The notes under the pieces: model-generated | The model's database searches: none | The model's input: only the letters and a program-made list of their open reading frames with translations | What the model was told of the DNA's origin: nothing | Program-made: the position numbers and the translations under genes | Sequence record: SRR22947725_833 | Direction: 5' to 3' (one strand) | Length of the DNA stretch: 42,272 nucleotides | In this document: piece after piece, positions 4,757-34,256 of the stretch | Layout: each line of letters starts with the position of its first letter | Numbering within the stretch: the first letter of the stretch is position 1

Positions 4757-4758
4757 AA

Positions 4759-10059: not shown

Positions 10060-10096
10060 ATTGTCCTCATTTATTTTTTACCTATTAATCAAATAG

Positions 10097-10882
10097 TTAG
10101 TCTATAGAGTACCTATTCCCCTGAGTCAGAATAAAAGGGAATACTTTAATAGTTTTTTTTAGAAATCTAGAGACATCACCACAACTATGTGAACAAATTT
10201 GCCCTCGACCTAAATTTATTTTCTTTGTTATACCTTCCCGTAAGCACATCGTATGAAAAGACTGAAAACTTGGTGTTGCACTCATATCATCTAAATGTCG
10301 TCCAGTGTATACCATTTTTTTTTCAATATTTTCTTCATTAATTAATATTGTTCCCGACAATTCAAAATCAGTTCGGTAGGTGACGCCTATTTCTCTCTCC
10401 ACCCAATGTAAAAAGGTTGAACCACTATCAAAGTTCAAATTACAAATAAGGGCATCTTCCTCAAATAATCGCTCCCAAATACTATTTGGGCCATAGCATA
10501 TATTTCCTACATTCTTAACGATCCGGTATGCTTTTTCTCCAAAACCTACAACTGACAACATTGGGTCTAATGATCTGATACCAACTCCACGCTCTATCAG
10601 TCGGTTAGCAATAGTAGACATTCCTTTAGCTGGTAAACTGGGGTCAAAAACTTTTTCAAACTTTTCAGAGCCAAATGAATATGTGAATGCTGGAACTATT
10701 AATGCACCGGTTGGACCCAGCACATCCATAAATGCCGATAAGAAAATATCAGCCAGCTCATTTGAGTTTGAACAGTTTTTTACCTGCCCAAAAAAAGCTA
10801 AATTAGAGTGACAAAATACGACTCCACCTTCCACAACTCCAGCATCTTTTAAGGCAACGCCAATATCAGTACTACTAATCAT
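10097..10882 (-). CDS. AAC(3)-family (Antibiotic_NAT) N-acyltransferase
   Basis: VFCHSNL, GALIVPAFTYSF, RSLDPMLS, TFLHWVE and YR motifs. Confidence 0.88.
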   Translation of the reverse strand: MISSTDIGVALKDAGVVEGGVVFCHSNLAFFGQVKNCSNSNELADIFLSAFMDVLGPTGALIVPAFTYSFGSEKFEKVFDPSLPAKGMSTIANRLIERGVGIRSLDPMLSVVGFGEKAYRIVKNVGNICYGPNSIWERLFEEDALICNLNFDSGSTFLHWVEREIGVTYRTDFELSGTILINEENIEKKMVYTGRHLDDMSATPSFQSFHTMCLREGITKKINLGRGQICSHSCGDVSRFLKKTIKVFPFILTQGNRYSID

Positions 10883-11136: not shown

Positions 11137-11150
11137 AGCAAAACCGTTGA

Positions 11151-11813
11151 TTAATTAATTATAGCAACTGCACGGACTGGAGAACCATCAGCATCTTGAA
11201 TTTTAATCGGGAACGCACTCAACGTAAACTCTGTATCAGGAACCTCGGAAAGGTTGCATAAATACTCCAAAATAGCTACATCGTTTTCAAGAAATATAGT
11301 ATGATTAGGTGAGTCTTTTTCACTATTTCTGCCGTTTGAAGGATTATCTGGCATTGGACTATCAAAACCTACAAGTACAACTCCACATGAAACTAGGTAT
11401 TTACACGCTTCCTCACTTAAAAAAGGATGGTCTGAATAATAACCGAGACTAGGGAGCCGCCTCTCCCAATCAAATCGAAATAATATTCTCTTTGGATAAT
11501 TACATGGTAGTTTTTTTTGTAACATTTCAAGAGTAATCTCTGTTTTGTCTGGTAGCTCAGTAAAGTCTAGCACAAGCGCATTTCCATAATAGATATTAAT
11601 ATCTGTATACTCAATCGTTTTCCCATTTTTTAAAAAGTGTCTAGGCGCATCAACATGGGTTCCTGTATGTGTACCTAAAGTTATCTTCCGAGTCTCTCTG
11701 CCTTCGACCTCGAACCTGCCAAGTTGAGTTATCGAAACAAAAGGATGCCAAGGCACAGGAAATGTCATCATCCCTTCACATATTTTCATACTTAGATCAA
11801 TTATTTTTGTCAT
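11151..11813 (-). CDS. Cyclase family (kynurenine formamidase-like) metal-dependent hydrolase
   Basis: IDLS, HTGTHVDAPRHF, GFD, LEYLCNL and DGSPVRAVA. Alternative TTG start at 11819. Confidence 0.9.
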   Translation of the reverse strand: MTKIIDLSMKICEGMMTFPVPWHPFVSITQLGRFEVEGRETRKITLGTHTGTHVDAPRHFLKNGKTIEYTDINIYYGNALVLDFTELPDKTEITLEMLQKKLPCNYPKRILFRFDWERRLPSLGYYSDHPFLSEEACKYLVSCGVVLVGFDSPMPDNPSNGRNSEKDSPNHTIFLENDVAILEYLCNLSEVPDTEFTLSAFPIKIQDADGSPVRAVAIIN

Positions 11814-12606
11814 TTTCAATCAACTCAAAAAAAGGGAGGGCTTCGCCTGAAAATAGAGCAATTATTAATCTTTGTCCATTAACATTTAAAATGAAACGAT
11901 CAATTTGATTTAAACCTGGGTAACGTCCATCATATTCAACTGGTAAATTTCTAGCCATAAACGCTAGAGCCGTGCATCCAGCATTGTCTATTTTACTATT
12001 AGGTCCCCAGTCCTTATGATATACCTTAGGCGCTAATATAATATGAGCTGACAAGGCTGGAATCGGTGTCAATAAAGACCAAATCTCGGTATTAGATTTT
12101 TCAAACCTTAAGCTAGACAATAAACCAGTTATATCTTTACCACTATCAACCAATATAATTGCTATGAAAAGGCCAGCACTTTCTTCTAATTTCAAAGGTG
12201 ACCAAAGTATGTGCATCTCTAACAATGAATCATAAAATATGAATATTTTTCTTTTTAAAGATCTTTCTATTTTTTTAATGGTCATTGCTGAAATTGGTAA
12301 ATCTTCAACTGTTTTTTGCTCCCACCCATTCAACAATTTATCACTTCTAAATATAGGAAGTATATTTGAATTTTCAGGGTTAAGCTGACTCCCGTGAAAA
12401 AGTAATTCAATCGACATACCAGAATCATTTTTAAGAAAGGTAATATCGTGGTTACTTACATAGTGATTTAAAAAAGGTTTCTTTGATAGATGGTTGCTCA
12501 ATTGTCTTTCTTCAAATTGAGTTTTATATCCAAATTCTTTTAATCTTTTTTTACTCACTGTCAGGTTAGTACTATTAATAGCTATATGACTGAGACCTAA
12601 GATCAC
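11797..12606 (-). CDS. VOC/glyoxalase-like protein
   Basis: N-terminal GLSHIAI, internal SIELL and C-terminal FELIE fit vicinal-oxygen-chelate metal ligands. Otherwise divergent. Confidence 0.55.
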   Translation of the reverse strand: MILGLSHIAINSTNLTVSKKRLKEFGYKTQFEERQLSNHLSKKPFLNHYVSNHDITFLKNDSGMSIELLFHGSQLNPENSNILPIFRSDKLLNGWEQKTVEDLPISAMTIKKIERSLKRKIFIFYDSLLEMHILWSPLKLEESAGLFIAIILVDSGKDITGLLSSLRFEKSNTEIWSLLTPIPALSAHIILAPKVYHKDWGPNSKIDNAGCTALAFMARNLPVEYDGRYPGLNQIDRFILNVNGQRLIIALFSGEALPFFELIENDKNN

Positions 12607-12607
12607 T

Positions 12608-14059
12608 TTATAGTCTATCTTTTGCTATATTTAGTTTTAGCTTTTTTCTTTTAATTTTACCTGTAGTAGTAACTGGTATCATTTCTACAAAGGCAACATG
12701 ATCAATAGAAATTCGACCTTTTTTATTTAAAATTTTATTACAATAAGCCTTAAATAAGTCAGCATTACGGTTGTCTATTTCACCTTGAACAACTAAAACT
12801 AAACTCTCACCCAATATTTCATCTAAAAAACTTGATATACAAAAGTTTGTTTGTCCTGGTAAATTTTTTATTTCTTTCTCTATACTAATAGGGTTTATAT
12901 TTACACCACCCCGAACAATTAATTCATCTGAGCGCCCATTTATTTTCAATCTCCCTTGCGAATTAATAAAAACCAAATCGCTAGTTTGGAAGGAACTCCT
13001 AAGCTCATAAAACTCTCCATCCTCTATCCAACCCAAACATCTATAAGGACTGTCTATCAATGCTAAGCCAGAGTCATCTATCGTAACTTCTATGCCTGGA
13101 AGCAACGTGCCAGTATAATCAAAGCAAAATTCTTCTAATTTATCTACAGATACATACAGTAACTCCGACAAACCGTATGATTGTAAAGGCGGCAGTCCAT
13201 ATTCTTTTAGAAATAAATGGGCTTTATCAGGTGCTAACGAACCGGTTCCTACAAATATATTTTTTAATAAAGGAGGTAACCTTTTATCAGTTCTGTCGAG
13301 CTTCATTATCATTATTAACATAGAGGGCGATAGCCAGAGGGAAGTAATATTATATTCATTCACTGTCTTCCAGAAATTTAGTGCCATCTTAGTGTCAAAA
13401 GCCTTATCAATTACAACAGAGGCGGTGGCAGTTAGTGGAGCAAATATTCCATTAAATATTCCGGCCATATAGTGCATGGGCATTACATTGAGAAAAGTAT
13501 CCGCACCTGAAATTCCTGTCATTTCATTAAAAGAATATGCACATTTCAAATAACTTTCAGCGGAGTGAATGATACCTTTTGGTTTACCAGTAGTTCCACT
13601 AGTAAATGTAACAGTAAGTGGACTGTTCTCTGGCACTTCGATTGGCTTATTTACTGGCAGTTGCTCAATTTTTTTCCAGTCAAAATTAATTATTTCATGA
13701 ACGCTAGTCTCATTTAAGTTTTGTCTACTACAATCTATAATCTTGGCTTTAGGTGAAAATTTTATAATTTCGAAAATTTCTTGATCTTTGATTGTTGGTG
13801 GCAAAACATACGTACAAAAACCGCCGCGCATACAACTTAGTAAAATTACTGCTGACTCTAACGTATTATCACATATGCTAATAATTTTCTTATCTTCACC
13901 AAGATCTAAATTTAACAAAAATCCACAAAATTTGTCGATAAGGGTAATCAGACGAGCCCCTGACAAATATGTTATCTCCGGCTCATAGGTTCGATCAGTT
14001 ATGATATTTTTTTTACAGTCTAAAATATTATAAAAAAATTGATCAATCAGTTTTGACAT
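12608..14059 (-). CDS. AMP-dependent synthetase/ligase (acyl-CoA or acyl-ACP ligase)
   Basis: TFTSGTTGKPKG, SYGLSE, FQTSD, GRSDELIVRGGVNINP and TTTGKI. Confidence 0.92.
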   Translation of the reverse strand: MSKLIDQFFYNILDCKKNIITDRTYEPEITYLSGARLITLIDKFCGFLLNLDLGEDKKIISICDNTLESAVILLSCMRGGFCTYVLPPTIKDQEIFEIIKFSPKAKIIDCSRQNLNETSVHEIINFDWKKIEQLPVNKPIEVPENSPLTVTFTSGTTGKPKGIIHSAESYLKCAYSFNEMTGISGADTFLNVMPMHYMAGIFNGIFAPLTATASVVIDKAFDTKMALNFWKTVNEYNITSLWLSPSMLIMIMKLDRTDKRLPPLLKNIFVGTGSLAPDKAHLFLKEYGLPPLQSYGLSELLYVSVDKLEEFCFDYTGTLLPGIEVTIDDSGLALIDSPYRCLGWIEDGEFYELRSSFQTSDLVFINSQGRLKINGRSDELIVRGGVNINPISIEKEIKNLPGQTNFCISSFLDEILGESLVLVVQGEIDNRNADLFKAYCNKILNKKGRISIDHVAFVEMIPVTTTGKIKRKKLKLNIAKDRL

Positions 14060-14080
14060 TGGAAACCAACCAAAGAATCA

Positions 14081-15142
14081 TTATAACTCATTTTGTTCTT
14101 CTCCAAAATATTTCGCTAATGAGAATCGGTGATTAAATCCTTCTTCCTTTGTAATGGCTCGAATTTCTTTAGCTTTACGTTCGACCAAATCTGCTGGAGC
14201 AAAGTCAATATTTTCAGAACAAACTTCTACAATTAATCTCCTTGGGTCAATATCATATTTGAGTGAAAATTCTTGAATTACCTTCATATAACTGGAATGA
14301 AAGCCTGAATACCCACAAATTACATCAATGGTATCCGATCCGATCTGACTTAAAAGGGGTCTAATAAAAGTCTCAGAAATATCTAATAAGCGCATCAAAT
14401 CAATATCTAACAACTTTCCTTCGCGTTGCATAATACCAACAAATTGTTCTATTTGAGTGTTGCCAGCACTTCGTCCCATTCCTTGTAGTGAACAATCAAT
14501 AATTGCTGCACCACAGTCAGCAGCAACCATTGAGTTGGCGACGGCTAATCCCAAATTATTATGCGCGTGGAAACCAAAAGATAAATCCGACAATCTTTCA
14601 CAGTATGTTCTTGTCATTTTGGGTGTTAAGTTTCCAGCAGAGTCCACGATATATACATGGTCTGCACCAAAGCCAATCGCCTGTCGAGCAGCTTTCTCAA
14701 AAAGAATAGGAGATCTGGCATATGATTTCATAAAGTTTACACACGTAACTATTCCAGCGGTCTTTGCCTTCCGTATAAATGGTTCGGCCTTCATAACATC
14801 ATCAATACTAACTCCAATACGAATAAACCCCATATTATAATCAATACACATGTCCAAGTCACCTACAGAACTAATACCAGGTATCGCAAACATTCCCCAT
14901 AAAGATCTTGATAACGAACTAGAGGCGGCCTTCATGTACTCTTCGTCACTTTCTCGAGCAAGCCCATAACCTGCTTCAGACGCATTTAAACCTACACCAT
15001 GACCAATCTCAATTAAATTTATGTTAGCCTGCTGAAGTTCGGAACAAATTTCAGACGTCTGTTTCGAATTAAAGTCAAAATTGTTTACGTAGGATCCATC
15101 TCGAAGAGTAGTATCTAGTATCTTCATTTTTTCATTCGTCAT
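14081..15142 (-). CDS. 4-hydroxy-2-oxovalerate aldolase-like (DmpG/HMGL-like DRE-TIM) enzyme
   Basis: LDTTLRDGSY, EIGHGVGL, VDSAG, GFHAHNNLGLAVANS, GMGRSAGN and a C-terminal GYSGFHSSY communication-domain-like segment. Start set to the ATG at 15142. Confidence 0.88.
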   Translation of the reverse strand: MTNEKMKILDTTLRDGSYVNNFDFNSKQTSEICSELQQANINLIEIGHGVGLNASEAGYGLARESDEEYMKAASSSLSRSLWGMFAIPGISSVGDLDMCIDYNMGFIRIGVSIDDVMKAEPFIRKAKTAGIVTCVNFMKSYARSPILFEKAARQAIGFGADHVYIVDSAGNLTPKMTRTYCERLSDLSFGFHAHNNLGLAVANSMVAADCGAAIIDCSLQGMGRSAGNTQIEQFVGIMQREGKLLDIDLMRLLDISETFIRPLLSQIGSDTIDVICGYSGFHSSYMKVIQEFSLKYDIDPRRLIVEVCSENIDFAPADLVERKAKEIRAITKEEGFNHRFSLAKYFGEEQNEL

Positions 15143-15207
15143 TATTGTTACCCTAATTGTCCAGCCTAGGCCAACCCCGGACTTAAAACAGGTTATAATC
15201 AAAAAGC

Positions 15208-16251
15208 CTAGTTTATTTTTATTGGCTCTCCAAAATCAAAATTTCTATCAGAACATTTACCAAGCAGTGTAGCATAATATCTTGGATGTGCACCAAAACC
15301 AGGTCGTACGACTTTTATATTTCTTTTTGTAAAAATATCACCCTTTTTTATTTTTTCTGACGCATAAATAGATCGCCTAAACTGAATATTCAGTTTTTCC
15401 TTTTCTGATAGATCAAAGCTAATATTTCCTAAAGACTTCCACGCATTTTGGCACTCTGTTACCAAAGACTTCATCTCCACTGGGTCTGCTGAAAAAGACG
15501 CATCCACACCTCCCAAACTTTTATCTGAAGTAAAATGCTTTTCAATAATAGTAGCACCAAGTGCTACACTAGCTACGGACACACCAATTCCCATTGAATG
15601 ATCTGAAAGCCCAATTTCACAACAAAACTTTTGTCTCATGTAAGGAATTGACAATAAATTACTATCCCCTACATCTGCTGGGTAATCAGAAGTACATTTT
15701 AACAATGCCAGCTCAGTACATCCAGCAGCCCTCGCCGTGTCAACAGCTTCATCAATTTCATCCTCAGAGGCCGTTCCAGACGATATAATTAAAGGCTTTC
15801 CGGTAGAAGCTACCTTCCTGATTAAAGGAATGTGATTATTTTCAAATGATGCGATCTTATAGGCAGGTGTATTTAAATCCTCCATAAATTCAACAGAGGT
15901 TTCATCAAAAACTGAGCTAAAACAGGTCAAACCATATTTAGAGCATTCCAACATAATATCTTTCACCCAATCCCAGTCTGTATACGCATCCCGGTAGAGG
16001 TCATATAAATACCTATTGGACCATAAGCTGTCAGGGTTTATAATTTTAAAGTCGTCTTTTTTACTATTTAAAGTAATAGTATCTGGAGTGTACGTCTGAA
16101 GTTTCAACGCATCTACTCCGCAAGCCGCTGCTGATTTTATTATGGAAAGTGCGTGATCAAAGGACTGATTATGATTGCCAGACATTTCAGCAATTATAAA
16201 AGGTTTTTTACTTTGATTAATAGCTCTTTGACTTATAAAGAATGGTTCCAT
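15208..16251 (-). CDS. pseI: Pseudaminic acid synthase
   Basis: FIIAEMSGNHNQS, KLQTYTPDTITL, YKIASFE, LKCTSDYPA, GLSDH, IEKHF, GGVDASFS and a SAF domain (RRSIY, RPGFG). Located with pseB/pseC. Confidence 0.93.
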   Translation of the reverse strand: MEPFFISQRAINQSKKPFIIAEMSGNHNQSFDHALSIIKSAAACGVDALKLQTYTPDTITLNSKKDDFKIINPDSLWSNRYLYDLYRDAYTDWDWVKDIMLECSKYGLTCFSSVFDETSVEFMEDLNTPAYKIASFENNHIPLIRKVASTGKPLIISSGTASEDEIDEAVDTARAAGCTELALLKCTSDYPADVGDSNLLSIPYMRQKFCCEIGLSDHSMGIGVSVASVALGATIIEKHFTSDKSLGGVDASFSADPVEMKSLVTECQNAWKSLGNISFDLSEKEKLNIQFRRSIYASEKIKKGDIFTKRNIKVVRPGFGAHPRYYATLLGKCSDRNFDFGEPIKIN

Positions 16252-16275: not shown

Positions 16276-16905
16276 TTAATTAATGCTTTTAGTGAGTTTT
16301 TTAAGTAATGTGGCAATAGTTCCATCATCTGTGTTTACTTTTTTAAAAATTTCTTCTGCTTCCTTAGGCGCAACTCGGAAAGCTAACCTCATTAGATTCA
16401 TCCAATTAACATTATTTTTTGAACGTATTCTCTCTATTTCATTGATAATTAATACTTTATTTAAATATAATAAACTTTCCCTACCACTCTCGTACAATGA
16501 AAACCCACTTCGTTCAAAACATTTTTGGCTAGAAATATTTTCTGGCCTGATACTTGCCGATAAAACTAAAACTCTATTAAGTGAAAAGGCTTGAATAGCC
16601 GTATCTAATAGTATCGAAGAAACCTTTCTTCCTCTCCACCTAGTATTAACATTAATAGAAACACTCGCATAATCCTGATTTTTATCAATATCAAAACGAA
16701 CCATTCCAACCGAGGACCCATCATCATTGACCCCTATAAAAATTTCGGAATCCACATCTTCTAGCTTATTATGAAACCATCTCTTATGTTCATCTTTATT
16801 GATTTTTTTTGTTGAAAAAGAGTTATATTTAGCATCTTTTTCATTGCGCCATTCTAATAGTTTTGTTTCATCTTCTATAGTCATTTTTCGTACTTTTAAA
16901 TTCAT
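16276..16905 (-). CDS. PseH-like GNAT N-acetyltransferase with a fused ~55 aa C-terminal helical domain
   Basis: LLEWRN, EHKRWF, VGMVRFD, RWRGRK and NISSQKCFERSGF. C-terminal extension IINEIERIRSKNNVNWMNLMRLAF. Alternative GTG start at 16914. Confidence 0.8.
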   Translation of the reverse strand: MNLKVRKMTIEDETKLLEWRNEKDAKYNSFSTKKINKDEHKRWFHNKLEDVDSEIFIGVNDDGSSVGMVRFDIDKNQDYASVSINVNTRWRGRKVSSILLDTAIQAFSLNRVLVLSASIRPENISSQKCFERSGFSLYESGRESLLYLNKVLIINEIERIRSKNNVNWMNLMRLAFRVAPKEAEEIFKKVNTDDGTIATLLKKLTKSIN

Positions 16906-16954
16906 AATACTCACCTAAAACTTATTTTTACTTTTTGAAAAATAAATAATTCTA

Positions 16955-19319: not shown

Positions 19320-20735
19320 TTAATCTATGCGTTTAGCTATACTAATATTTTTATCCTTAAATATTACCTCAAAGTGACCTAGCTCCACAAGTTTATCATT
19401 TATTGGTTCGTGAGTTGGTAAAATTGATAAAGAAAAGCCATTTCTAATAATGAATTCTGGCAGTGCAGACTCTGGCCGCTTATTAGCTATAATTTCATGA
19501 TGCATATTATGAATTCTTAAATTATTTAATCTTTTTCTAATAAGGCCATAGTAGTTTGAAACAGTAAAAATGAGATCATCTTCATCTAAGTGTAACTCAT
19601 AAATAAAATCTTTTTCAGCTATATAAGATTTATAATTTTTGTAACCACGATATGCTTCAGGAGCAGAGATCACCAAACCAAGACAAGCTAAAGAAAAATA
19701 AAGTTTATAATTAAGTTCTCGAAAAATAACAAATGCAAAAGGTAAAAGCATAATAATCGAGAGTTCTGTATTTCCAACATTTCCTCCTGCTTTAAGGCCG
19801 CTGATAAATGATGCCCCAGAAGCGAATAGAAGTGGTAAAGCCCAAGGCTTTTTGAACAGTGCGACTTTACGCATTAAGAACTCTATTGGCTTCTTTAGAG
19901 TTAAAAATGGCTCTTTCCCCATAAGAAAAATAAAAATAATTAAAAAAGTTAGTAACTTAAGTGATAATTTAAAATGCTCATAAAGCCAGGCTTTTAAGTT
20001 CACCAAGCCATCATCAGAAAGAGCCTCAACGGTCCAGAACCAGGCATTTTCTATTGTCCAAACGAACACAATGATAGCAATTGACGTCAAAAAAGTAATA
20101 ATTGCTGAAACGGTAAAAAAAGCATTTCTTTGTATGCAAGCAAAAATAAAATATCCCAATATAAAGGCGATGTATTGCTGTTTGAAAATTAAAGGTAGAC
20201 TTATCAAAGCCGACAAAACTATTACACCTACCCAGTTGTAATTTTTTTTGTGATAAGAGTTGGTCATTAAAACAAAAGTAAGACCTAGAGAAAGCGTCAA
20301 GGTATCCGGCTTCAATTTAAGAGCGTATAGATACCAGTTGGTAAGAATTACACTTGAGAAAAATACCCAAAAGCAAAAAAAATGGAAAAAATCAATTTTT
20401 TCAATGAGGTCACGAGTTACAACATACTGAATCAAAAATAACCAAACTATTATAAAAATTCCTGCTAAATGCATAATTTCAATAATTAGATTATCAGGGA
20501 CAACAAAAAGTGTTAGGCTAATCAGATAGCTAAGCCCAGGGAAATAATTACTGGCAGCCATACTGGGGAACTCTGTTACACTGGGGTATAAAGGAAGATC
20601 ATTTTTCCATCTATCAACCATTGCAAGATGATCCAAAATATTCCAGTCCGGCATAACACCAAGACTATATCCAACTGATACCCCTAAGAATAAAATAGTC
20701 AAAAAGCATTTGAAAAATATATCTTTTTGTAACAT
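19320..20735 (-). CDS. Polytopic membrane protein, putative GT-C fold glycosyltransferase
   Basis: Many hydrophobic segments, YFPG, KPD and FKQQ motifs typical of ArnT/PMT-like proteins, and a soluble C-terminal domain. Confidence 0.55.
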   Translation of the reverse strand: MLQKDIFFKCFLTILFLGVSVGYSLGVMPDWNILDHLAMVDRWKNDLPLYPSVTEFPSMAASNYFPGLSYLISLTLFVVPDNLIIEIMHLAGIFIIVWLFLIQYVVTRDLIEKIDFFHFFCFWVFFSSVILTNWYLYALKLKPDTLTLSLGLTFVLMTNSYHKKNYNWVGVIVLSALISLPLIFKQQYIAFILGYFIFACIQRNAFFTVSAIITFLTSIAIIVFVWTIENAWFWTVEALSDDGLVNLKAWLYEHFKLSLKLLTFLIIFIFLMGKEPFLTLKKPIEFLMRKVALFKKPWALPLLFASGASFISGLKAGGNVGNTELSIIMLLPFAFVIFRELNYKLYFSLACLGLVISAPEAYRGYKNYKSYIAEKDFIYELHLDEDDLIFTVSNYYGLIRKRLNNLRIHNMHHEIIANKRPESALPEFIIRNGFSLSILPTHEPINDKLVELGHFEVIFKDKNISIAKRID

Positions 20736-20768: not shown

Positions 20769-22811
20769 TTAGGTTAATCTTTTAAAACCAGTATGGCAAA
20801 TAGGTCCATTTAATAGAGTATTTATGTCTTTACCATTTTCACATTCACAAATAGTTTTAAAAATATCATCTAAAATCATGAAATAATCATCTAATATTTT
20901 ATCTGTATGCGCAGTTGACACATAAATAGAGTTTCCTGCTAAGTATCCCTTTGATAACATTTCCTGAGTTATATACGTCTTATATTTGAGGGCATCTTTC
21001 GAAAGAATTGAGAAACTACATAATGCATCTAACCCAGTAATATTAAGATCGATAGAGTTATTTTCGGCAATCTGTTGCCATATTTTTTTAATCTTTTTAC
21101 CTGTCCTTGTTACCTTCTCCCAACTTCTCTCCCTTTCCATGACTTCCAAAGTCTTTAATGCTGCTACACTTCCGATACGTTCTGTCCAAAATGTGCTTGA
21201 TATGAAAGAACTGTTTCCAGCCTCCATAATAGATCGTCGTCCAATAACACTGGTAACAGCGTACCCATTACCTAACGCTTTACCAAAAACTGCCAAATCA
21301 GGTTCAATTTGATACTTCTTATGAAGGCCACCAAATGTCTCTCGAAATCCTGAAGTACATTCATCAAATATTAGCACAATGTTGTTTTCAGTTGCGATTT
21401 TACGAACCTTACGCAAAAAATCCTTATCTGGCTCTCTATCGCGGCAGACCTCCATCTTGATCGCGGCTAGTCTTTTTTCCTTAACTATGACTTCTAATTC
21501 ATCTATTCTATTATATTTAAAAGGTACGACTGTTCCCTTTAAAGAACGTGACACACCGTTTGGCTCAAGACCGGGTAAAAGGTGACCATCTAATTTATCA
21601 GTATCCCCAAGGTTCGCTGCTAGGTACCAATCTTGCCATCCGTGATAACCACAAATTGCGATAGTTTCCCGTCCAGTAGCCGCTCTTGCAATGCGTACCG
21701 CAACTGCATTTGCTTCTCCCCCAGTACGACAAAACTTCGCCATTTCCGCAAAGGGGTGCATAGAGATCAGCTTTTCAGCTAACATCACTTCTTCAGGCGC
21801 ATTTAAACTAGACAAATTACCGTCATCAACCGCTTGCTTAACTGCTTCGTTCACTTCTGGGTGATTGTATCCAAGTAAATTTGTACCAACCCCCATGAGA
21901 TAAAGGTCATGGTAGTTCTTATTATCAAGATCCCACACCGTACATCCGTCAGTCCGACTAAAGTATGCAGGCCAATGATCCGGTAGAAACATCTCTGGCC
22001 GTTTTGATAACAACATATTTCCAGCTGGGATTATTGTCTTGGCACGTTGCCAAAGCTTTTGACCTGAATTCATTTCAACTCCAGCATTCCTTCTTGTGTC
22101 CTTGTTCATTATAACAGTATTTTTACCATCAGTCTTTAAAAATTGAATAATCTCCTCAAACGAAAAATCAACCCTTGGATTAAAATAATTACAGACTGAC
22201 TTAATTACTTTTAGATCATTTTCATCATCTACGGTTAACCTCAAAGAAGATAGATCCTCTGAACAAGAGAAATTATGCCGTTTTATTTTTTTTGAAGATC
22301 TCATAAATGATGTTACATGTTCTTTATCAAATTCTGTTTTTGCATTCTCAACCGCATTTTCTAATGCCTCATAAGAAAAAACCTCAACATCCATCCCATC
22401 TGGATAAGTAGGAGGGTCCACATTCGATACATAGTCAAATACGCCATCTCTAAATATAGAAATAGCTTCTTTAACAATTATAGGATCAATTAATGGACAA
22501 TCTCCTGTAATTCTTACTACCACATCAGGGTTATAAACTTTTGCGATCTCATAGAAGCGCTTCAAAACATTTAACTCATCGCCACGATGAACTATTAATC
22601 CTAAATCTAAACAATGTTTAAACAAAATATCATCATCAGTCCCCTCGGGGATAGCCAGAATCATTTTATCAAAACAATCTAACTTATTTAATCTTTCAGT
22701 TAATATATTAATTAATGTCCGACCATTGATTTTTTTTAAAACCTTGCCAGGCAATCGACGCGAATTCATCCGTGCTTGTATTAGTATAATTACTTTCAAT
22801 TTACTTTCCAT
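20769..22811 (-). CDS. Fusion of SpsF/PseF-like cytidylyltransferase and class III (GSA aminomutase-like) aminotransferase
   Basis: N-terminus IQARMNSRRLPGKVL, RITGDCPLIDP, YPDGMDVE and RLTVD. From about 22073: LLSKRPEMFLP, RTGGEA, GYHGW, LIFDECTSGFR and FGKALGNG (PLP lysine). Confidence 0.92.
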   Translation of the reverse strand: MESKLKVIILIQARMNSRRLPGKVLKKINGRTLINILTERLNKLDCFDKMILAIPEGTDDDILFKHCLDLGLIVHRGDELNVLKRFYEIAKVYNPDVVVRITGDCPLIDPIIVKEAISIFRDGVFDYVSNVDPPTYPDGMDVEVFSYEALENAVENAKTEFDKEHVTSFMRSSKKIKRHNFSCSEDLSSLRLTVDDENDLKVIKSVCNYFNPRVDFSFEEIIQFLKTDGKNTVIMNKDTRRNAGVEMNSGQKLWQRAKTIIPAGNMLLSKRPEMFLPDHWPAYFSRTDGCTVWDLDNKNYHDLYLMGVGTNLLGYNHPEVNEAVKQAVDDGNLSSLNAPEEVMLAEKLISMHPFAEMAKFCRTGGEANAVAVRIARAATGRETIAICGYHGWQDWYLAANLGDTDKLDGHLLPGLEPNGVSRSLKGTVVPFKYNRIDELEVIVKEKRLAAIKMEVCRDREPDKDFLRKVRKIATENNIVLIFDECTSGFRETFGGLHKKYQIEPDLAVFGKALGNGYAVTSVIGRRSIMEAGNSSFISSTFWTERIGSVAALKTLEVMERERSWEKVTRTGKKIKKIWQQIAENNSIDLNITGLDALCSFSILSKDALKYKTYITQEMLSKGYLAGNSIYVSTAHTDKILDDYFMILDDIFKTICECENGKDINTLLNGPICHTGFKRLT

Positions 22812-23701
22812 TTTGTTGGGTCTCTTAAAGACTCATCAATATCCATGAGTTCATCAGGAAAATCGTTAGCTAAAGTATTTTTATAACGCAAAACTTCTTT
22901 AAATTGTTTTATATTTTGAAAGCCAACAACCACTCTTTCTATACCCAAAGGTAAGTGAGTGTTTATGAATGAGATAGCCCCCTGAACCTGTGAAAAATTA
23001 TTTTTCTCTAACCAAATATCCCATAGAGTCCATATCTTAGCCCACTTATCAAAATACCTTGGCCGTTCTTTTGGAGAACAAATCAATAGCCCCTGCAAAA
23101 AAATAGAGCGTACGTGTACGGAAATATTATTATCTTTACAATACTTTAACCCTCCCGAATGTATCATTCTTTGATCAAAGATACTCAGAGGTGCTTGAAT
23201 CAAATCAATTGGAAATTTTTCTGATAAGGGTTTTATATGATCGGGATTGTAAATTGACACACCTATTTTCTTACACAAACCCTTATCTTTAGCTTTCAAT
23301 AAACCCCTTACTATTTTATCACTAGTGGGACCAAACAAAAGATCCACATTATGGATAAGAACTGCATCTAATTGGTTTACCTTAAGACGCTCCATTGAGC
23401 CTATGATAGCAGTATCTACCCTATTCTCGACCCTAGAGGAATCATTACCAATATCAGATATTTTAGTCACTATTTCAAAAGCGCTTAAATCAAAATTTCC
23501 TAACCTTGTTTCACTTACGCCATAACTGGCCGCCGTATCAATTGTTTGTACATTTTTCTTTTTTGCCAAATTTAAAACAAGTTTTATTTGTTCATTCGAA
23601 ACCGTTCCTGTGTTATTGGTTATGCCATAATCTAAACCAAACTGGGCTGCTCCTAAAGCTAACTTCACGTCATTCCAATCCATTTTTCTTTTTAACTTCA
23701 A
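22796..23701 (-). CDS. Aldo/keto reductase
   Basis: LALGAAQFGLDYG, IDTAASYGVSE, VTKI, KIGVSIY and HVRSIFLQGLL. Confidence 0.92.
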   Translation of the reverse strand: MKLKRKMDWNDVKLALGAAQFGLDYGITNNTGTVSNEQIKLVLNLAKKKNVQTIDTAASYGVSETRLGNFDLSAFEIVTKISDIGNDSSRVENRVDTAIIGSMERLKVNQLDAVLIHNVDLLFGPTSDKIVRGLLKAKDKGLCKKIGVSIYNPDHIKPLSEKFPIDLIQAPLSIFDQRMIHSGGLKYCKDNNISVHVRSIFLQGLLICSPKERPRYFDKWAKIWTLWDIWLEKNNFSQVQGAISFINTHLPLGIERVVVGFQNIKQFKEVLRYKNTLANDFPDELMDIDESLRDPTKWKVN

Positions 23702-24270
23702 CCACCTGTAACCACCAGTTTTAACTTTTTATATTGTAAAATCTCCTGACGAAATCCATCTAACATTAAATACTTAGTCAAAGCAGCATCTTTAATAAAA
23801 CCATTATTTTCTAGAACCTTTATTGAACCCAAATTATTTATATAAACTCCTGCTAAAACCTTCTCTATTCTTAATTTTTGAAATGCAATTTCTACAACCA
23901 TTCCAATTACTTTTGTACCTATTCCTTTATTCCAGTAGGATTTGTTGCCAATGATATATGAAACTGTGGCTGTGAGATTATTAACATCTATATCTCCTAG
24001 CTTTACGTTTCCAATATGTTTTTCACTAGAGTATATCCCCATCAACAAATCACATTCAGATTTATACTTTTTAACAACATATTCTCTTATTGTGTGGATA
24101 TTCTGAATACTGTGCCTCTGCTCCGTAAACTTAACCACTTCATAATCTCTCATCCAACTCAGATATTCTTTGCTAACTACAGTTTCTTTAAGTGCACAAA
24201 GCACCAAATCATCCTTGCTCGATATAATTTCTAAGGTTTTAAGAGTATTTAGATCTAACAATTCACTCAT
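23698..24270 (-). CDS. RimJ/RimL-type GNAT N-acyltransferase
   Basis: YLSWMRD, HIGNVKL, YWNKGIGT and NLGSIKVLENNGF. Confidence 0.88.
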   Translation of the reverse strand: MSELLDLNTLKTLEIISSKDDLVLCALKETVVSKEYLSWMRDYEVVKFTEQRHSIQNIHTIREYVVKKYKSECDLLMGIYSSEKHIGNVKLGDIDVNNLTATVSYIIGNKSYWNKGIGTKVIGMVVEIAFQKLRIEKVLAGVYINNLGSIKVLENNGFIKDAALTKYLMLDGFRQEILQYKKLKLVVTGG

Positions 24271-26366: not shown

Positions 26367-27365
26367 CTACAAATTCCCTATATTTTTGGTATTATATTTT
26401 ATCCATTTTCCAAGTTCTTCTTTTGTCATCCAATTTGCATTCTTGTCCGAGGTATACGAAAAACTATCAGAAACTCTTATACCAGAACCTATACGATCAG
26501 GGTCCTCTGACCATTTATTAATCGATGGTAGTATCTTGTAATAATTATCAAATTCGAAGGTGTGTGGAGCGTCCTCAATACCAATCATCTGTTCATGCAG
26601 TTTTTCTCCAGGACGTATCCCAATAATCTCATGATCTGAGTTTGGAGAGATTGTTTTAGCGATATCCACGACTTCCATAGAAGGAATTTTTTTAACATAT
26701 ATCTCTCCACCCAGCATATCCTCAAATGCGTGCCAAACCAATCTAACTCCTGCATCTAAAGAAATCATAAAACGTGTCATTCTAACGTCAGTAATGGGAA
26801 TACTAGCATTTTTCTCTAATGACATAAAAAACGGAATCACCGAGCCACGAGATCCCATTACATTTCCATACCTAACAATTGAAAATCTAGTTCCTGAATT
26901 ATCACTATTAGGGTTGCTGGCTACGAATAACTTATCAGATGCTAACTTAGTAGCTCCATAAAGATTTATAGGGTTACTTGCTTTGTCAGTCGACAGTGCT
27001 ACCACGCTTTTCACATTTGCTGCTTTACATGCCTCAATAACATTCATCGCACCATTTATATTTGTTTTAATGCACTCTGAAGGATTATACTCAGCTGTAG
27101 GCACGATTTTTGTTGCAGCCGCATGTACCACATGATCCACTCCAGAGAGGACATCCGTAAGCCTGGACTTATCGCGAACATCGCCAATAACAAATCTGAC
27201 GCGAGAGTTTTTGTCAAACTTCATTGCCATATCCCATTGTTTCATTTCATCTCGAGAGTAAATAATAATCTCTTTTGGATCATATTTTGCAAGAGTCATT
27301 GGCACAAATGTGTTACCAAACGACCCAGTCCCACCAGTAATTAAGATTCTTTTATTTTTAAGCAT
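26367..27365 (-). CDS. pseB: UDP-N-acetylglucosamine 4,6-dehydratase (inverting)
   Basis: ITGGTGSFG, YSRDEMKQ, HAAATKIVPTAEYNP, LSTDKASNPINLYGATKL, RYGNVMGSRGSV and GIRPGEKLHE. Confidence 0.96.
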   Translation of the reverse strand: MLKNKRILITGGTGSFGNTFVPMTLAKYDPKEIIIYSRDEMKQWDMAMKFDKNSRVRFVIGDVRDKSRLTDVLSGVDHVVHAAATKIVPTAEYNPSECIKTNINGAMNVIEACKAANVKSVVALSTDKASNPINLYGATKLASDKLFVASNPNSDNSGTRFSIVRYGNVMGSRGSVIPFFMSLEKNASIPITDVRMTRFMISLDAGVRLVWHAFEDMLGGEIYVKKIPSMEVVDIAKTISPNSDHEIIGIRPGEKLHEQMIGIEDAPHTFEFDNYYKILPSINKWSEDPDRIGSGIRVSDSFSYTSDKNANWMTKEELGKWIKYNTKNIGNL

Positions 27366-29861: not shown

Positions 29862-30192
29862 ACGAATCCCAAAATTAACTAAGTATAATCTTTCTGTGTT
29901 CGAAAGAAAATAAGGCCTTCACAAATATTACTCGATATCTTTTTTTTTGGTAAACTGAATAGTTTATGGTGGTATAAAGCGGTGAAAAGTACTGAATAAG
30001 AAATTAAACTTACATTTTTTATATAGCTTTTAAAAACCTATTTAAGTTCTTCACGAATCACATATTTCAACAAAAAATAATTTATCAATAATAAACGGGT
30101 CAGGTCACTTCAATTATTTGAAAAAAAGATCGCTTGTGTTAATTCTAATATTGATTTTGACAACAATAGTTTTGTCAATGATAGAAATTCTT

Positions 30193-30330
30193 CTACTTTA
30201 CTTGTACCGTTTTCAAATAGAAATTGGTGCTTAACACTTCGTCGTACTTCATTGATTTAGGATAAGATACAGAAAAGGAATTTCTTAAATGTGCACCTGT
30301 TACTGTCACCATTCCCCTTTGCTTCAACAT
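30193..30330 (-). pseudogene. Degenerate IS3-family transposase (OrfB integrase core) fragment
   Basis: Manual translation MLKQRGMVTVTGAHLRNSFSVSYPKSMKYDEV keeps the exact spacing of the recalled IS3 motif GAWRDNVFVERLWKSVKYEEV, but the catalytic Glu is lost. Confidence 0.5.
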
Positions 30331-30496
30331 GTTGTCATCTTTTAAAAAAAAGACAACAAGAACTTATAAAATAGCCCAGTCATTTTTTGCAACTTGATTG
30401 AGTAGAAAAAGGTCTAAAGGTTGGAGGAAGATCTTCATTTTAGTTACCTCAAAATGAACTCTGGTAAATATTAAAGATAAATGAAATAAATAAATA

Positions 30497-31105
30497 TTGT
30501 CGTATAGTTTAGAAAAATTTTTAAGAATGAAAAACATAACTAATCCAAATGCAATAGATGACATTAAACTAATTATATTTGATGTTGATGGTGTGCTGAC
30601 AGATGGAAAAAAAACATACGACACCAAAGGACAAAAAATATCTAAATCTTTTGGTGATCTGGATTTCACAGCAATAAAAATATTACAATCTTTTGGTTTT
30701 AAAGTTGTTTGGCTCTCTGGAGACGAAGTTGTTAATGAACCGTTAGCCGTCATCAAGAGTATACCTTTTTATTGTACTCGGCTTTCTGATGGTAGCAATC
30801 AAGATAAAATTTTACTGCTTCCTAGTATATTAAATTTTTTTTCTCTTTCAAAAGAGCAAGTTTGGTTTGTTGGAGATGATATATTCGACTTAAATATAAT
30901 TAGAAATGTTGGCTTTTCCTCCTGCCCAGCAAATGCCTCTTTCTTGGTCAAGCGAGAAGTAGATTTAGTTCACAATAGTAAATCCGGAGAAAGCGTGGCC
31001 TCAGAAATATTAGAACTACTATTTGACCACCATCAATTCCGTGATGTTAATATACCTAGCATATTAGAAAATCAAAACAAAGAGGGTCAAAGGAACAAAA
31101 AATAG
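30497..31105 (+). CDS. kdsC: KdsC-like HAD phosphatase (ulosonate-phosphate phosphatase)
   Basis: IFDVDGVLTDG, KSFGDLD, LSG, DK, VGDDIFD and CPANA. Alternative ATG at 30527. Confidence 0.8.
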   Translation: MSYSLEKFLRMKNITNPNAIDDIKLIIFDVDGVLTDGKKTYDTKGQKISKSFGDLDFTAIKILQSFGFKVVWLSGDEVVNEPLAVIKSIPFYCTRLSDGSNQDKILLLPSILNFFSLSKEQVWFVGDDIFDLNIIRNVGFSSCPANASFLVKREVDLVHNSKSGESVASEILELLFDHHQFRDVNIPSILENQNKEGQRNKK

Positions 31106-31208
31106 TATCTTGAACTCAATACTATATCAAAAAACCGTATTCATACTCTAACATACACCCAAGCACTACAAGGGTTTCAAATGTAGGCTGTTAGATACTT
31201 TAAGATAG

Positions 31209-31231
31209 AAAAACCTAAAATAGGTTTTTTT
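31209..31231 (+). terminator. Possible intrinsic (bidirectional) terminator between convergent genes
   Basis: aaaaaccta-aaa-taggttttt hairpin with a T run on one side and an A run on the other. The stem is weak and AT-rich. Confidence 0.35.
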
Positions 31232-31260
31232 GGAAAGACAATAATTTATATTTCTTAGCG

Positions 31261-31560
31261 ATAGTAGAAACACTGTTCGGCTTAAAACTGAGATGCGAGT
31301 ATTATTCTACTCACTGCCGATGAAACTATATTACCAACACTAAAGGGCCCAAGGTCTGAGGCGGACACCTCACCCTGGTTTTGAATACTCTGACCCGGCG
31401 TTTTAATTCTTAACATTGGAGGTCAAAAAAATACCTCAGTCTTAAGGAATTACCTAGATATCTGTGTTACAGAACCTTTAACAAGTAGGGTTATCTAAAG
31501 TTAGAATCATAGCACCAGAAACTAATGTGCCTATCCACAGAAGTCTTATTTGCATGGGGG
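31261..31560 (+). mobile_element. Highly degenerate IS3-family (IS407-group-like) transposase C-terminal relic
   Basis: Collinear, frameshifted peptide remnants G-KLR-E, FYSL, NTKGP and APETNVPI (31512 onward) resemble the recalled OrfB tail GKLRDE...IFYSL...HYNTKRPH...PAPETIVPM. The stretch is locally richer in GC. Confidence 0.4.
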
Positions 31561-31760
31561 TACTTTGATAACCAAGAAAGACCTTGAACCACAAAAATAC
31601 GCTGCCTATGATATTCTTTCCTTCCGAAACTCCCTTCTCAAAACCCTTTTATTTTTCAAAAGAAAAAATATTTTAGGAGAATAGAGCTCAATACGGCTTT
31701 TATTATTATAGCTAATAGTCTAAAATATGTGGAACTCTACCTAAATATTACCACTATTTA

Positions 31761-33320
31761 CTATATTGGAGTAAAATAATCTTCCCAGTATTCAAATATC
31801 TGTAATTCAAATGGATCTCCAAAACTGATCCACTGATCAACTTCAAATGTTACGAATTTTAATCCCTTAGATAACAGATAATTAATTGAATTACCCACAT
31901 AATGCTCTCCATTTACTTTTATATCATTTTGGATTGTATAGTGTGCGGTCTCTAAAAAATTTTCTGCTCGCCTAAACCAAAATGTACCCAAAACAAGTGG
32001 GTCATTATTTGGAGTTTGACTAATCACCTTTTTTTCTACTATTTCACTAACCGTACCATCTTCGTTCGTAATGCAGTAGGCAAATGCCTCAGGATTCTTC
32101 ACCGGGATATTCCCTGTTTTTGTTACCCAGATAGCTCCATCAATGGACAAATCTAATAATATCGAGTCCCATTTTTTGTCATTATAAACTACTCGATAAT
32201 CACAAGATGTTATAAACATTTCTGCAGAAATGCACATTCTGTTTTCTGCCAATAAACAAGTAGCAGCTTGACCTGAAGTTTCACTTTTAACTTCAATTAA
32301 TTCAAAGGACCCATCGATATTATGGAAAAGCTTTGCTAGGTCATATTTACCACCATCATTTGCTCTAACAAGTATGAGGTATTGGTCCTGTTTTGGAATC
32401 GAGTCAATCGCGTGTAAAATCATAGGCTTGTCTTGTACAGTAATAAGCGGCTTACTAACTCTATAACCATAACTAGAAAACCTAGTACCCTTCCCCGCCA
32501 TGGGAATTAATGCCAATTTAAGATTTTTTTCCTGCGATCTAGATTTTGGTAAATAGGTTTTTTTAAAGTATTTGTCCCAAAAATTATACTGTTCATAATC
32601 ACTTGGAGTACCCAAACAAATAAATTTAGAAACCTCTGTTACTAATACATTAAGTTTATCCCTAACCATAAAATTGTAGAGAAGACTTACGTACGCTTCT
32701 TTTACATCACTAGGCATATTTTTGAGTAGCTCGTCAGCATAATGGTCAAATGTTTTTTTATCCCTAAAATAATAAATTCCAGCAGACGCGGGTTCATTTT
32801 GCCTTTCATTAGTGAACGATTTCTTTTCTTTCAATTCCAGCATATCGTTATGGGCATTAGTTTTCATATAAGCAAAGTATGTTGTTCCAAAAGATGCTGG
32901 GTGGAAACCTTTAAACGATGGGATTGCACCATCATAACTCACAACCTTTTCTAAAAAATACCTAAAATTCCATTCAACAATAAAATCACAATAACAGATT
33001 ATTATTGGATCGTCTGGGTTTAAGTCAGTTACCTTCCTTACAGAGAGTACGGGCCCAATTTCATGAGGTTCTATTACCGTTATTGTAGATTTTAATACCA
33101 AACTTTTAAGGAAGTTTATAAGGTTTGAATCTTCATTTACTTGGCTCAAGTTAACAACAAAATGGAATTCACATAAGTTTCCATCAAACATATCTAAAAC
33201 ATGTTCTATCATTGTTTTTTCGCCAACAGGTAATAAAGCCTTGGGTCCTGTATAACCTAATTGATGGAATCTACGCGAGTGACCACACAAAGGTATTATT
33301 ACATTTATTAAATTCACCAT
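31761..33320 (-). CDS. Tandem two-domain sugar-phosphate nucleotidyltransferase
   Basis: Domain 1: IIPLCGHSRRF..GY..PKALL, CYCD, LGTPSDY. Domain 2 from about 32520: LIPMAGKGTRF..GY..SKPLI, GQAATC, TSCD, EIVEK, VNGEHYV, FGDPFEL. Confidence 0.88.
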   Translation of the reverse strand: MVNLINVIIPLCGHSRRFHQLGYTGPKALLPVGEKTMIEHVLDMFDGNLCEFHFVVNLSQVNEDSNLINFLKSLVLKSTITVIEPHEIGPVLSVRKVTDLNPDDPIIICYCDFIVEWNFRYFLEKVVSYDGAIPSFKGFHPASFGTTYFAYMKTNAHNDMLELKEKKSFTNERQNEPASAGIYYFRDKKTFDHYADELLKNMPSDVKEAYVSLLYNFMVRDKLNVLVTEVSKFICLGTPSDYEQYNFWDKYFKKTYLPKSRSQEKNLKLALIPMAGKGTRFSSYGYRVSKPLITVQDKPMILHAIDSIPKQDQYLILVRANDGGKYDLAKLFHNIDGSFELIEVKSETSGQAATCLLAENRMCISAEMFITSCDYRVVYNDKKWDSILLDLSIDGAIWVTKTGNIPVKNPEAFAYCITNEDGTVSEIVEKKVISQTPNNDPLVLGTFWFRRAENFLETAHYTIQNDIKVNGEHYVGNSINYLLSKGLKFVTFEVDQWISFGDPFELQIFEYWEDYFTPI

Positions 33321-33333
33321 GGCTTTCTTATTT

Positions 33334-34254: not shown

Positions 34255-34256
34255 CT

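Follow-up and report, generated by a model that had tools for sequence, protein, structure and literature searches.

We wanted to establish what an aldo-keto reductase (AKR) and a two-domain cytidylyltransferase/aminotransferase contribute to a gene cluster for pseudaminic acid (Pse). Both genes lie at positions 20769-23701 of sequence record SRR22947725_833, a stretch of 42,272 nucleotides that was analysed at its full length and is called here the window. Proteins of the window were assigned to families by Pfam and NCBIfam profile scores against the curated cut-offs. A first-pass annotation of this DNA had described an AKR gene overlapping the gene for a fusion of an SpsF-type domain with a class-III aminotransferase, in a locus that has PseC in addition. 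Both descriptions held. The open reading frames (ORFs), the Pfam matches and an overlap of 16 nt bear out the first, and PseC was recognised above its cut-off as part of another fusion protein (Table 1). We use AT3 for the class-III aminotransferase gene or domain, and GNAT1 and GNAT2 for two N-acetyltransferase genes listed in Table 1.

We propose that GNAT1, the AKR and the SpsF/AT3 fusion may constitute one tailoring module of the Pse pathway. The function that we favour, with confidence slightly short of even, would be addition of an extra amino group to Pse or CMP-Pse, with C8 as the preferred position.

Replacement of PseF by the module in Flavobacteriaceae

The strongest evidence is a natural exchange between PseF and the module. 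We analyzed a sample of 401 genomes of Flavobacteriaceae, the family of a Polaribacter locus (L049) carrying the module. AT3 was found in 10 of them and the SpsF-type gene in the same 10, adjoining AT3. The AKR was present in all 10, with 3 weaker matches elsewhere among the 401. PseI exceeded its cut-off in 39 genomes, and the module is present in 8 of these. We compared the loci of 20 of the 31 PseI-positive genomes that had no AT3 match with those of the module genomes. All 20 module-less loci had the order PseB-PseC-(small ORF)-PseF/NeuA-type cytidylyltransferase-...-PseI. The nine module loci with PseB and PseC upstream (L115-L122 and L049) all had the order PseB-PseC-(small ORF)-GNAT1-AKR-SpsF-AT3-...-PseI, with GNAT1 directly upstream of the AKR in each and no PseF-type gene between PseB and PseI in any of them.

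In loci L113 and L120, 13 genes are collinear (54-91% identity), and the PseF/module swap is the sole difference. Both retain their own GNAT, short-chain dehydrogenase/reductase (SDR), metallophosphoesterase, ATP-grasp enzyme, PseI and flippase-like gene. The swap recurs on two further backbones (L100 and L111 compared with L115; L106 compared with L119). The PseF model TIGR03584 (cut-off 205.7 bits) was not exceeded in any of the ten module genomes. Five of them gave partial weak matches only, and the model matched an SpsF-type gene once, at 26.6 bits (G167).

Since PseF is replaced by the module, we take the SpsF-type enzyme as the probable CMP-activating enzyme of these Pse loci, where it, and not a TIGR03584-type PseF, would activate the sugar. 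The SpsF-type domain of the window would likewise be the CMP-nonulosonate synthetase of its locus and stand in for PseF. In the available part of a study on Bacillus subtilis, spsF was needed for transfer of legionaminic acid and not for its synthesis (PMC7439481). Along with the SpsF-type enzyme, the module adds one oxidoreductase, one aminotransferase and one N-acetyltransferase, thus the set required to convert C-OH to C-NHAc.

Two side observations concern these loci. The backbones of L113 and L120 have no recognisable PseG, and their metallophosphoesterase and ATP-grasp enzyme stand between the GNAT/SDR genes and PseI; the metallophosphoesterase may replace PseG as UDP-sugar hydrolase. 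In L115, the SpsF-type gene and AT3 are separated by two ORFs on the reverse strand (570 and 380 aa), which may be an insertion.

Domains and catalytic residues

The 680-residue fusion (20769-22811, minus strand) matched CTP_transf_3 (PF02348) over residues 8-206 (E 3.9e-26, 92.7 bits, cut-off 22.6) and Aminotran_3 (PF00202) over residues 281-624 (E 9.2e-42, 143.6 bits, cut-off 30.5). Residues R14, S17, R19, K23, D138, D141, D195 and D199 of the cytidylyltransferase domain and D483 and K511 of AT3 were invariant in 18 aligned homologues; the first four belong to the N-terminal R/K motif of such cytidylyltransferases. We take D483 and K511 to be catalytic: D483 as the aspartate of the motif DE..GFR, and K511 as the lysine that binds pyridoxal phosphate (PLP). 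This motif and fGKalgnG align with those of glutamate-1-semialdehyde (GSA) aminomutase, the aminopentol aminotransferase 6hbs and the C-6' aminotransferase 7lld, and fGKalgnG, which contains K511, aligns with fGKiigGG, the Schiff-base lysine motif of GSA aminomutase 6w80. The nearest solved relatives of AT3 were 6hbs, the best, and 7lld. Presumably 7lld acts on a sugar 6'-aldehyde and 6hbs on the amine beside the terminal methyl of an aminopentol. A solved relative of the SpsF-type domain was 6oew, a 'Cytidylyltransferase' (E 3.4e-35).

AT3 stayed under every NCBIfam equivalog cut-off (245.8 bits against 486 for PRK06209, NF004856; 182.8 against 527.3 for hemL, TIGR00713). Therefore the name 'glutamate-1-semialdehyde aminomutase', which databases usually give to relatives, denotes resemblance and not a functional assignment. 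PseF was not among the best 25 of the 72 NCBIfam families that matched the fusion.

The AKR matched Pfam Aldo_ket_red over residues 13-275 (E 2.5e-28, 99.5 bits, cut-off 24). D55, Y60, K80 and H117, which we take to be the Asp-Tyr-Lys-His catalytic tetrad, were kept in all 50 aligned homologues. Its best NCBIfam match was KidO, at 116.6 bits and under the cut-off of 244, and no relative of solved structure was found at E 1e-8. The AKR and fusion ORFs overlap by 16 nt, as the string ATGGAAAGTAAATTGA shows, and the stop codon TGA of the AKR (22796-22798) falls within the first codons of the fusion. At the other end, the listed TTG start of the AKR overlaps the stop of GNAT1; an ATG is available six codons further in. 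The catalytic parts of the SpsF domain, AT3 and the AKR thus look intact.

Distribution and gene context

The protein search returned at least 8000 candidates past E 0.001. The best 120 relatives of the fusion were 665-692 aa long, contained both domains and were 56-83% identical; their named sources included Leptospira, Bacteroidales, Chlorobium, Cycloclasticus, Pontibacterium and Cypionkella. With one genome per species, relatives were confirmed in at least 595 species loci, out of at least 600 matching stretches. The best 80 of the confirmed loci served as a broad set for gene context. They span Pseudomonadota, Cyanobacteriota, Bacteroidota, Chlorobiota, Verrucomicrobiota, Actinomycetota, Chlamydiota, candidate phyla and one Methanoregula. 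Genes were labelled with the proteins of the window and by clustering of unlabelled neighbours, with NCBIfam/Pfam checks of cluster representatives.

SpsF and AT3 were fused in 43 of the 80 loci. An SpsF-type gene adjoined AT3 in 14, the usual arrangement in Bacteroidota, and a NeuA-type cytidylyltransferase adjoined it in two (L068 and L077); AT3 stood alone in 21. The AKR lay at most 3 genes from the fusion in 34 of the 36 fused loci whose upstream sequence reached 1.2 kb or more (exceptions: L028 and L069). In 3 of the 14 SpsF-adjacent loci (L063, L064 and L067) its position was occupied by a Gfo/Idh/MocA dehydrogenase, a substitution that fits the AKR as an oxidant, as ElaA, considered below, belongs to the same family. 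Where at least 5 kb was available on both sides of the fusion (n = 28), PseB was present in 24 loci, PseC in 22, PseG in 18, PseI in 20 and any NeuB in 26. The typical order was PseB-PseC-(GNAT1, methyltransferase or amidotransferase)-AKR-SpsF/AT3-PseG-(PseH or formyltransferase)-PseI; a methyltransferase was found upstream of the AKR in 4 of 44 broad-set loci. Further fusions were observed: L022 has an SpsF+AKR fusion followed by SpsF-AT3, and in L023 GNAT1 is fused to the AKR. Together with SpsF-AT3, these fusions tie the parts of the module to each other. A bifunctional SpsF+AKR gene also occurs in a Vibrionaceae Pse cluster, as described in the accessible part of PMC7371886.

The relatives consisting of AT3 only nest within the biosynthetic clade in a quick tree. 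They adjoin NanA-like genes of the DHDPS family, NanE, a ROK kinase, an ABC importer and PhyH dioxygenases. Their place in nanA/nanE/ROK clusters ties the AT3 family to nonulosonate metabolism, here in the opposite direction. Such catabolic-looking clusters, with AT3 and neither cytidylyltransferase nor AKR, were seen in L034, L037, L038, L039, L052 and L059 (around position 10000). They contain a Dpp-type ABC importer, two DHDPS/NanA-like genes, NanE, the ROK kinase and an M81 peptidase-like gene, and further a class-IV aminotransferase, PhyH dioxygenases and AraC/IclR regulators.

Several loci carry variants or additional sets. Downstream of PseI, a second set resembling oxidation, amination and acylation was found in L001 (10071-14522), L018 (10014-14431), L023 (14721-19461), L123 (3' part) and L042. 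It comprises a stand-alone SpsF-type cytidylyltransferase, a family-less 301-aa protein, a Gfo/Idh/MocA dehydrogenase, a DegT-type aminotransferase (202 bits to the PseC model, below cut-off) and a GNAT. L094 (1032-9780), and also L036 and L068, have a variant cassette in which the AKR and cytidylyltransferase genes flank a second, divergent NeuB. After this cassette, L094 has a divergent class-III aminotransferase and an oxidoreductase that resembles FAD amine oxidases. The order in L092 (4418-13614) and L093 is PseB, PseC, AKR, Gfo/Idh/MocA, SDR, NeuA-type cytidylyltransferase, PseG-GNAT, formyltransferase, PIG-L deacetylase, PseI, which may be an Ela/Aci-like epimerisation set for Pse.

Proposed chemistry

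From the gene architecture, the intact motifs, the linkage and the replacement of PseF we infer a substrate, a direction for the AKR, a position and an order relative to CMP activation. The free secondary alcohols of CMP-Pse are those at C4 and C8. In the scheme that we favour, the AKR would oxidise one of the two, in Pse or CMP-Pse, to a ketone, the PLP-dependent class-III domain would transaminate that ketone to an amine, and GNAT1 would acetylate the amine. The product would be CMP-5,7,8-triamino-3,5,7,8,9-pentadeoxy-nonulosonate. An 8-keto-9-deoxy sugar is a methyl ketone, a usual substrate of class-III transaminases, and C8 is favoured because oxidation there would give such a ketone.

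An extra amination of Pse had already been suggested in the first-pass annotation. The suggestion gained ground in that the AKR and SpsF-AT3 are extra to the canonical Pse enzymes, form one unit with GNAT1 and replace PseF in Flavobacteriaceae; replacement on otherwise collinear loci agrees with extra steps of oxidation, transamination and N-acetylation that are coupled to CMP activation. The order of steps fared less well. Amination had been placed ahead of CMP activation, whereas the precedent of ElaABC, from Acinetobacter baumannii, puts the C8 oxidation after activation and not before (PMC13656337, available part).

A natural sugar of this kind, 5,7-diacylamido-8-amino-3,5,7,8,9-pentadeoxy-manno-nonulosonic acid, is listed for the O-polysaccharide of Flexibacter maritimus in the part of a review that was available (PMC3210612). 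It is possible, if distinctly more doubtful than the addition of an amine as such, that the module makes CMP-8-acetamido-8-deoxy-Pse, or its free-amine or N-methyl forms, and is the missing route to widespread 5,7,8-triamino nonulosonic acids.

Evidence against the scheme and alternative explanations

A number of points weigh against an amine added at C8. The chemistry comes from comparative genomics throughout, and sequence cannot discriminate C8 from C4, even if we favour C8. AKRs usually act as reductases, and the minimal loci contain no oxidant other than the AKR. L092 and L093 have an AKR of the same clade without AT3, beside Gfo/Idh/MocA, SDR and NeuA-type cytidylyltransferase genes; the AKR may be a ketoreductase in such loci, where the set resembles one for epimerisation. 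GNAT1-type genes were directly upstream of the AKR, or fused to it, in only 13 of 44 broad-set loci; one was found anywhere in the locus in 21 and none was recognised in 23, while minimal loci such as L019 have one GNAT only. An extra cytidylyltransferase was present in 7 of the 28 fused loci with long flanks. L026, L027 and L033 combine PseB, an RmlD-like gene, a different NeuB and AKR-SpsF/AT3 with no PseC or PseG within reach, so the module would serve more than one backbone. Finally, PseG was absent from every frame of the window when searched with a profile built from the PseG proteins of 29 loci, which finds 33 ORFs in related loci. Without PseG, the pathway of the window is not fully canonical.

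The same counts bear on another suggestion of the first-pass annotation, that surplus acyltransferases fit an additional amine. GNAT1 does belong to the module (9 of 9 loci in Flavobacteriaceae, though only 13 of 44 in the broad set), but the AAC(3)-like gene cited with it is part of a separate acyl-carrier module. As a general rule, surplus acyltransferases as constant companions of the module were rejected.

A first alternative, which we consider unlikely, is stereochemical tailoring without a net new amine. The AKR would then be a ketoreductase, and the class-III domain would make or epimerise a centre via a keto or quinonoid intermediate. Pse would be converted to an epimer, much as legionaminic acid is by Ela and Aci enzymes. 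The neighbours of the AKR in L092 and L093, where AT3 is absent, resemble ElaABC, the class-III fold includes racemases among the listed PDB matches, and 23 of the 44 loci have no recognised extra GNAT. The Vibrionaceae cluster, too, continues from SpsF+AKR to a dehydrogenase with no AT3, in the part of PMC7371886 that was available. Against this, the catalytic Lys and Asp of a transaminase are invariant in AT3, the module of Flavobacteriaceae always brings its own GNAT besides that of the backbone, and it would be wasteful to strip an amine just installed by PseC.

Oxidation and transamination may also take place at another carbon, C4 of Pse or CMP-Pse, or C7 in the PseC-less loci with an RmlD-like gene. 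We regard this as somewhat less likely again. C4 carries the only other free secondary alcohol of CMP-Pse, and AT3 is the sole aminotransferase in L026, L027 and L033, so that it may install the second amine late there. We know of no natural 4-amino nonulosonate, and a C8 methyl ketone suits class-III transaminases. The Ela precedent also concerns C8 (PMC13656337), and the known natural triamino sugar has its amine there (PMC3210612), both according to the parts available.

According to a third explanation, the SpsF domain is merely a PseF, and the AKR and AT3 act on a substrate other than a sugar, for example a keto acid of the acyl module, to give an amino-acyl side chain. The window does have an HMGL/AMP-ligase/carrier-protein module at 8752-15202, parts of which recur beside the module in L067 and L078. 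We find this improbable, as most module loci have no acyl module, PseF is exchanged for GNAT1-AKR-SpsF-AT3 on otherwise unchanged backbones, 59 of the 80 loci have AT3 either fused to a cytidylyltransferase or next to one, and the AT3-only relatives sit in nanA/nanE/ROK clusters.

The least probable alternative is that the SpsF-type domain activates something other than a finished nonulosonate and that the three enzymes act on a hexose intermediate before PseG and PseI: the gene order PseC-(GNAT1)-AKR-SpsF/AT3-PseG-PseI, the GNAT1-AKR fusion of L023 and the second cytidylyltransferase in 7 of 28 loci agree with it, but to our knowledge the CTP_transf_3 enzymes with an established function use ulosonic acids, SpsF of B. 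subtilis comes into play once legionaminic acid has been made, and the module replaces PseF, with only partial weak PseF matches elsewhere in five of ten module genomes.

Organization of the window

Table 1. Coordinates, family matches and proposed roles of the module genes and other Pse-related genes of the window
Feature	Position	Strand	Family match	Role
GNAT1, 190-aa N-acetyltransferase	23698..24270	-	Pfam Acetyltransf_3, E 3.2e-16	Proposed acetylator of the new amine
AKR, 301 aa	22796..23701	-	Pfam Aldo_ket_red	Proposed NAD(P)-dependent oxidoreductase making the keto group
SpsF-type cytidylyltransferase domain, residues ~1-240 of the fusion	22092..22811	-	Pfam CTP_transf_3	Proposed CMP-nonulosonate synthetase instead of PseF
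GSA-like class-III (fold type I) aminotransferase domain, residues ~241-680 of the fusion	20769..22091	-	Pfam Aminotran_3	
PseB	26367..27365	-	TIGR03589, 502.6 bits (cut-off 407.75)	First step of the Pse pathway
RmlD-like reductase/PseC fusion, 696 aa	24271..26361	-	TIGR03588, 442.7 bits (cut-off 423.5), residues 305-691	
PseI	15208..16251	-	TIGR03586, 453.8 bits (cut-off 340.25)	Pseudaminic acid synthase
GNAT2, PseH-like N-acetyltransferase beside PseI	16276..16914	-	Pfam GNAT families; PseH TIGR03585, 51.7 bits (cut-off 93.1)	
AAC(3)-like protein	10097..10882	-		Part of the acyl module

From 29157 down to 878, every gene in the ORF list of the window is on the minus strand and the genes are tightly packed. 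The order upstream is PseB, the RmlD-like/PseC fusion and GNAT1, then the AKR and SpsF/AT3. The fusion is followed by a 471-aa polytopic membrane protein, a methyltransferase, a PhyH dioxygenase, a methyltransferase, GNAT2, PseI and the acyl module. The canonical Pse set (PseB, C, H, G, I and F) is incomplete in the window, with only PseB, PseC and PseI over their cut-offs. For the roles of PseH and PseF there are only relatives below cut-off; GNAT1 gave 31.9 bits against the PseH model TIGR03585 (cut-off 93.1). No Gfo/Idh/MocA gene was found in the window, and its only SDRs (3132-4807) belong to a Kdo-like module. Between 14000 and 31000, neither the 62 promoter-like sites (shuffled mean 71.1) nor the 10 terminator-like sites (shuffled mean 8.3) were in excess, and neither kind marks operon limits.

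The 471-aa membrane protein (19320-20735, minus strand) has no family match and sits in the slot usual for PseG in related loci. The N-terminal half of the PseC fusion matched rmlD (TIGR01214) over residues 4-284, at 153.3 bits and below the cut-off of 224.05. The RmlD-like/PseC fusion recurs in L122; in L035 and L036, a separate RmlD-like gene is flanked by PseB and PseC. PseG is mostly missing where an RmlD-like gene occurs (the window, L026, L027, L028, L033 and L036); L035 has both. A 4-reductase alongside a 4-aminotransferase, PseC, is an odd pairing.

The acyl module (8752-15202, minus strand) comprises a 4-hydroxy-2-oxovalerate-aldolase-like (HMGL-like) protein, an AMP-ligase, a 269-aa protein of no named family, a cyclase/arylformamidase-like protein, an 84-aa carrier-like protein (PP-binding, E 0.002), the AAC(3)-like protein and a DUF4910/DUF2172 protein with a winged helix. 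Parts of it stand beside the cassette in a few loci: L067, where DUF4910 is fused to an AAC(3)-like domain, and L078; DUF4910 was found also in L055, L061 and L079. In Legionella pneumophila serogroup 6, a 'putative aminopeptidase' is listed after NeuB.

A second ulosonic-acid module (2350-8564, minus strand) contains a PFTS-motif protein, KdsA (335.7 bits, over cut-off), an HpcH-type aldolase, two SDRs, a 142-aa KpsF piece with CBS and without the SIS domain, and a KdsB-like cytidylyltransferase below cut-offs. An alditol-phosphate-like module (31761-36016 and 38601-39749, minus strand) has a 519-aa double nucleotidyltransferase, a xylose-isomerase-like TIM barrel, a ribulose-phosphate 3-epimerase and Zn-dehydrogenases. 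The latter module is shared at high scores with L077 (1158-7871), a marine alphaproteobacterial single-cell genome, which also has AT3 adjoining a NeuA-type cytidylyltransferase. The region 29862-31760 is gene-poor. A short plus-strand ORF there (30497-31105) resembles HAD hydrolase models at their two ends only and may be a gene remnant. The sign of the GC skew switches at approximately 28-31 kb.

Significance

Nonulosonic acids shape how hosts, phages and antibodies view the bacterial surface. If the triamino reading is true, a common module of four activities would define a new, widespread chemical class of nonulosonic acids with a third nitrogen, so far known from the O-antigen of one fish pathogen. 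It would extend to hundreds of species of many phyla, including SAR11, Prochlorococcus, Synechococcus, Leptospira, L. pneumophila serogroups 6 and 12 and a methanogen, with matching catabolic aminotransferases in marine alphaproteobacteria. The reading would account for where Tenacibaculum maritimum gets its 8-amino sugar. It would also correct a frequent mis-annotation, since the module genes are now annotated as 'glutamate-1-semialdehyde aminomutase', 'aldo/keto reductase' and 'spore coat protein F'.

Comparison with known systems

In full-text literature, with most subscription journals outside its scope, we found neither a function given for the module nor a described route to a triamino nonulosonate. 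In the WbpB/WbpE/WbpD pathway, UDP-hexuronates are the substrates of a Gfo/Idh/MocA dehydrogenase, an aminotransferase of DegT type and an N-acetyltransferase. It resembles the module in having three activities that turn C-OH into C-NHAc on an activated sugar, and WbpE appeared among the solved DegT-type relatives. HemL, 7lld and 6hbs have the fold and the PLP motifs in common with AT3 and are its nearest families by score, with AT3 below the equivalog cut-offs.

The module genes have been listed before without a function. In the available part of PMC3694923, the lipopolysaccharide clusters of L. pneumophila serogroups 6 and 12 list CapD, DegT, an aldo/keto reductase, an amidotransferase set, an acetyltransferase, a cytidylyltransferase, a class-III aminotransferase, PseG, a GNAT and NeuB. 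A paper on the O-antigen of T. maritimum (PMC9796276) names no class-III aminotransferase, AKR or cytidylyltransferase in its available part, and Tenacibaculum, the genus of this producer of the 8-amino sugar, was not among the best 120 of 7959 matches to the Polaribacter AT3; the species may still carry the module. B. subtilis SpsF is the namesake of the N-terminal domain of the fusion, and genetics place its CMP activation after legionaminic acid synthesis; unlike the fusion, it is a stand-alone protein, and its sps operon appears without an AKR or a class-III aminotransferase in the text available (PMC7439481).

The first-pass annotation had drawn an analogy with KdnB/KdnA, which make the 8-amino-Kdo of Shewanella. 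Its logic is apt, as in both cases C8 of an ulosonic acid would be oxidised and then transaminated, but KdnA is not the class-III enzyme that it was said to be. The KdnA chain, 5k8b, matched the DegT/PseC-type domain of the window (E 5.1e-20) and was absent from the 60 class-III matches listed out of 90. The label 'type III' belongs to KdnB, an iron alcohol dehydrogenase, according to the part of PMC5125639 that was available. Thus KdnB and a DegT-type KdnA differ from the AKR and class-III domain of the window; moreover, they use the primary alcohol of Kdo and have no link to a cytidylyltransferase.

ElaABC of A. baumannii KL49, for 8-epi-legionaminic acid, was proposed from genetics, crystal structures and docking and not from enzyme assays, as the available part of PMC13656337 presents it. 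A dedicated CTP-transferase, ElaB, is followed by the Gfo/Idh/MocA oxidase ElaA, which would act at C8 of CMP-legionaminic acid, and an SDR that would reduce the 8-keto form. The module is similar in that a dedicated cytidylyltransferase and oxidoreductases are proposed for C8 of a CMP-nonulosonate via an 8-keto form, and a Gfo/Idh/MocA dehydrogenase replaces the AKR in L063, L064 and L067. The L064 protein had no solved relative at E 1e-6, and the only match of its SDR neighbour was 6uh2, an unnamed short-chain dehydrogenase. Unlike the module, the Ela system has no aminotransferase or fusion in the text available, uses legionaminic acid and gives an epimer. Its oxidoreductases are Gfo/Idh/MocA and SDR enzymes and not an AKR, whereas the neighbours of the fusion in the window are an AKR and a GNAT (PMC13656337).

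In summary, we rate the module either as tailoring of a nonulosonate at the level of the CMP-sugar or as oxidation and transamination of an ulosonic acid, and both kinds of system are known.

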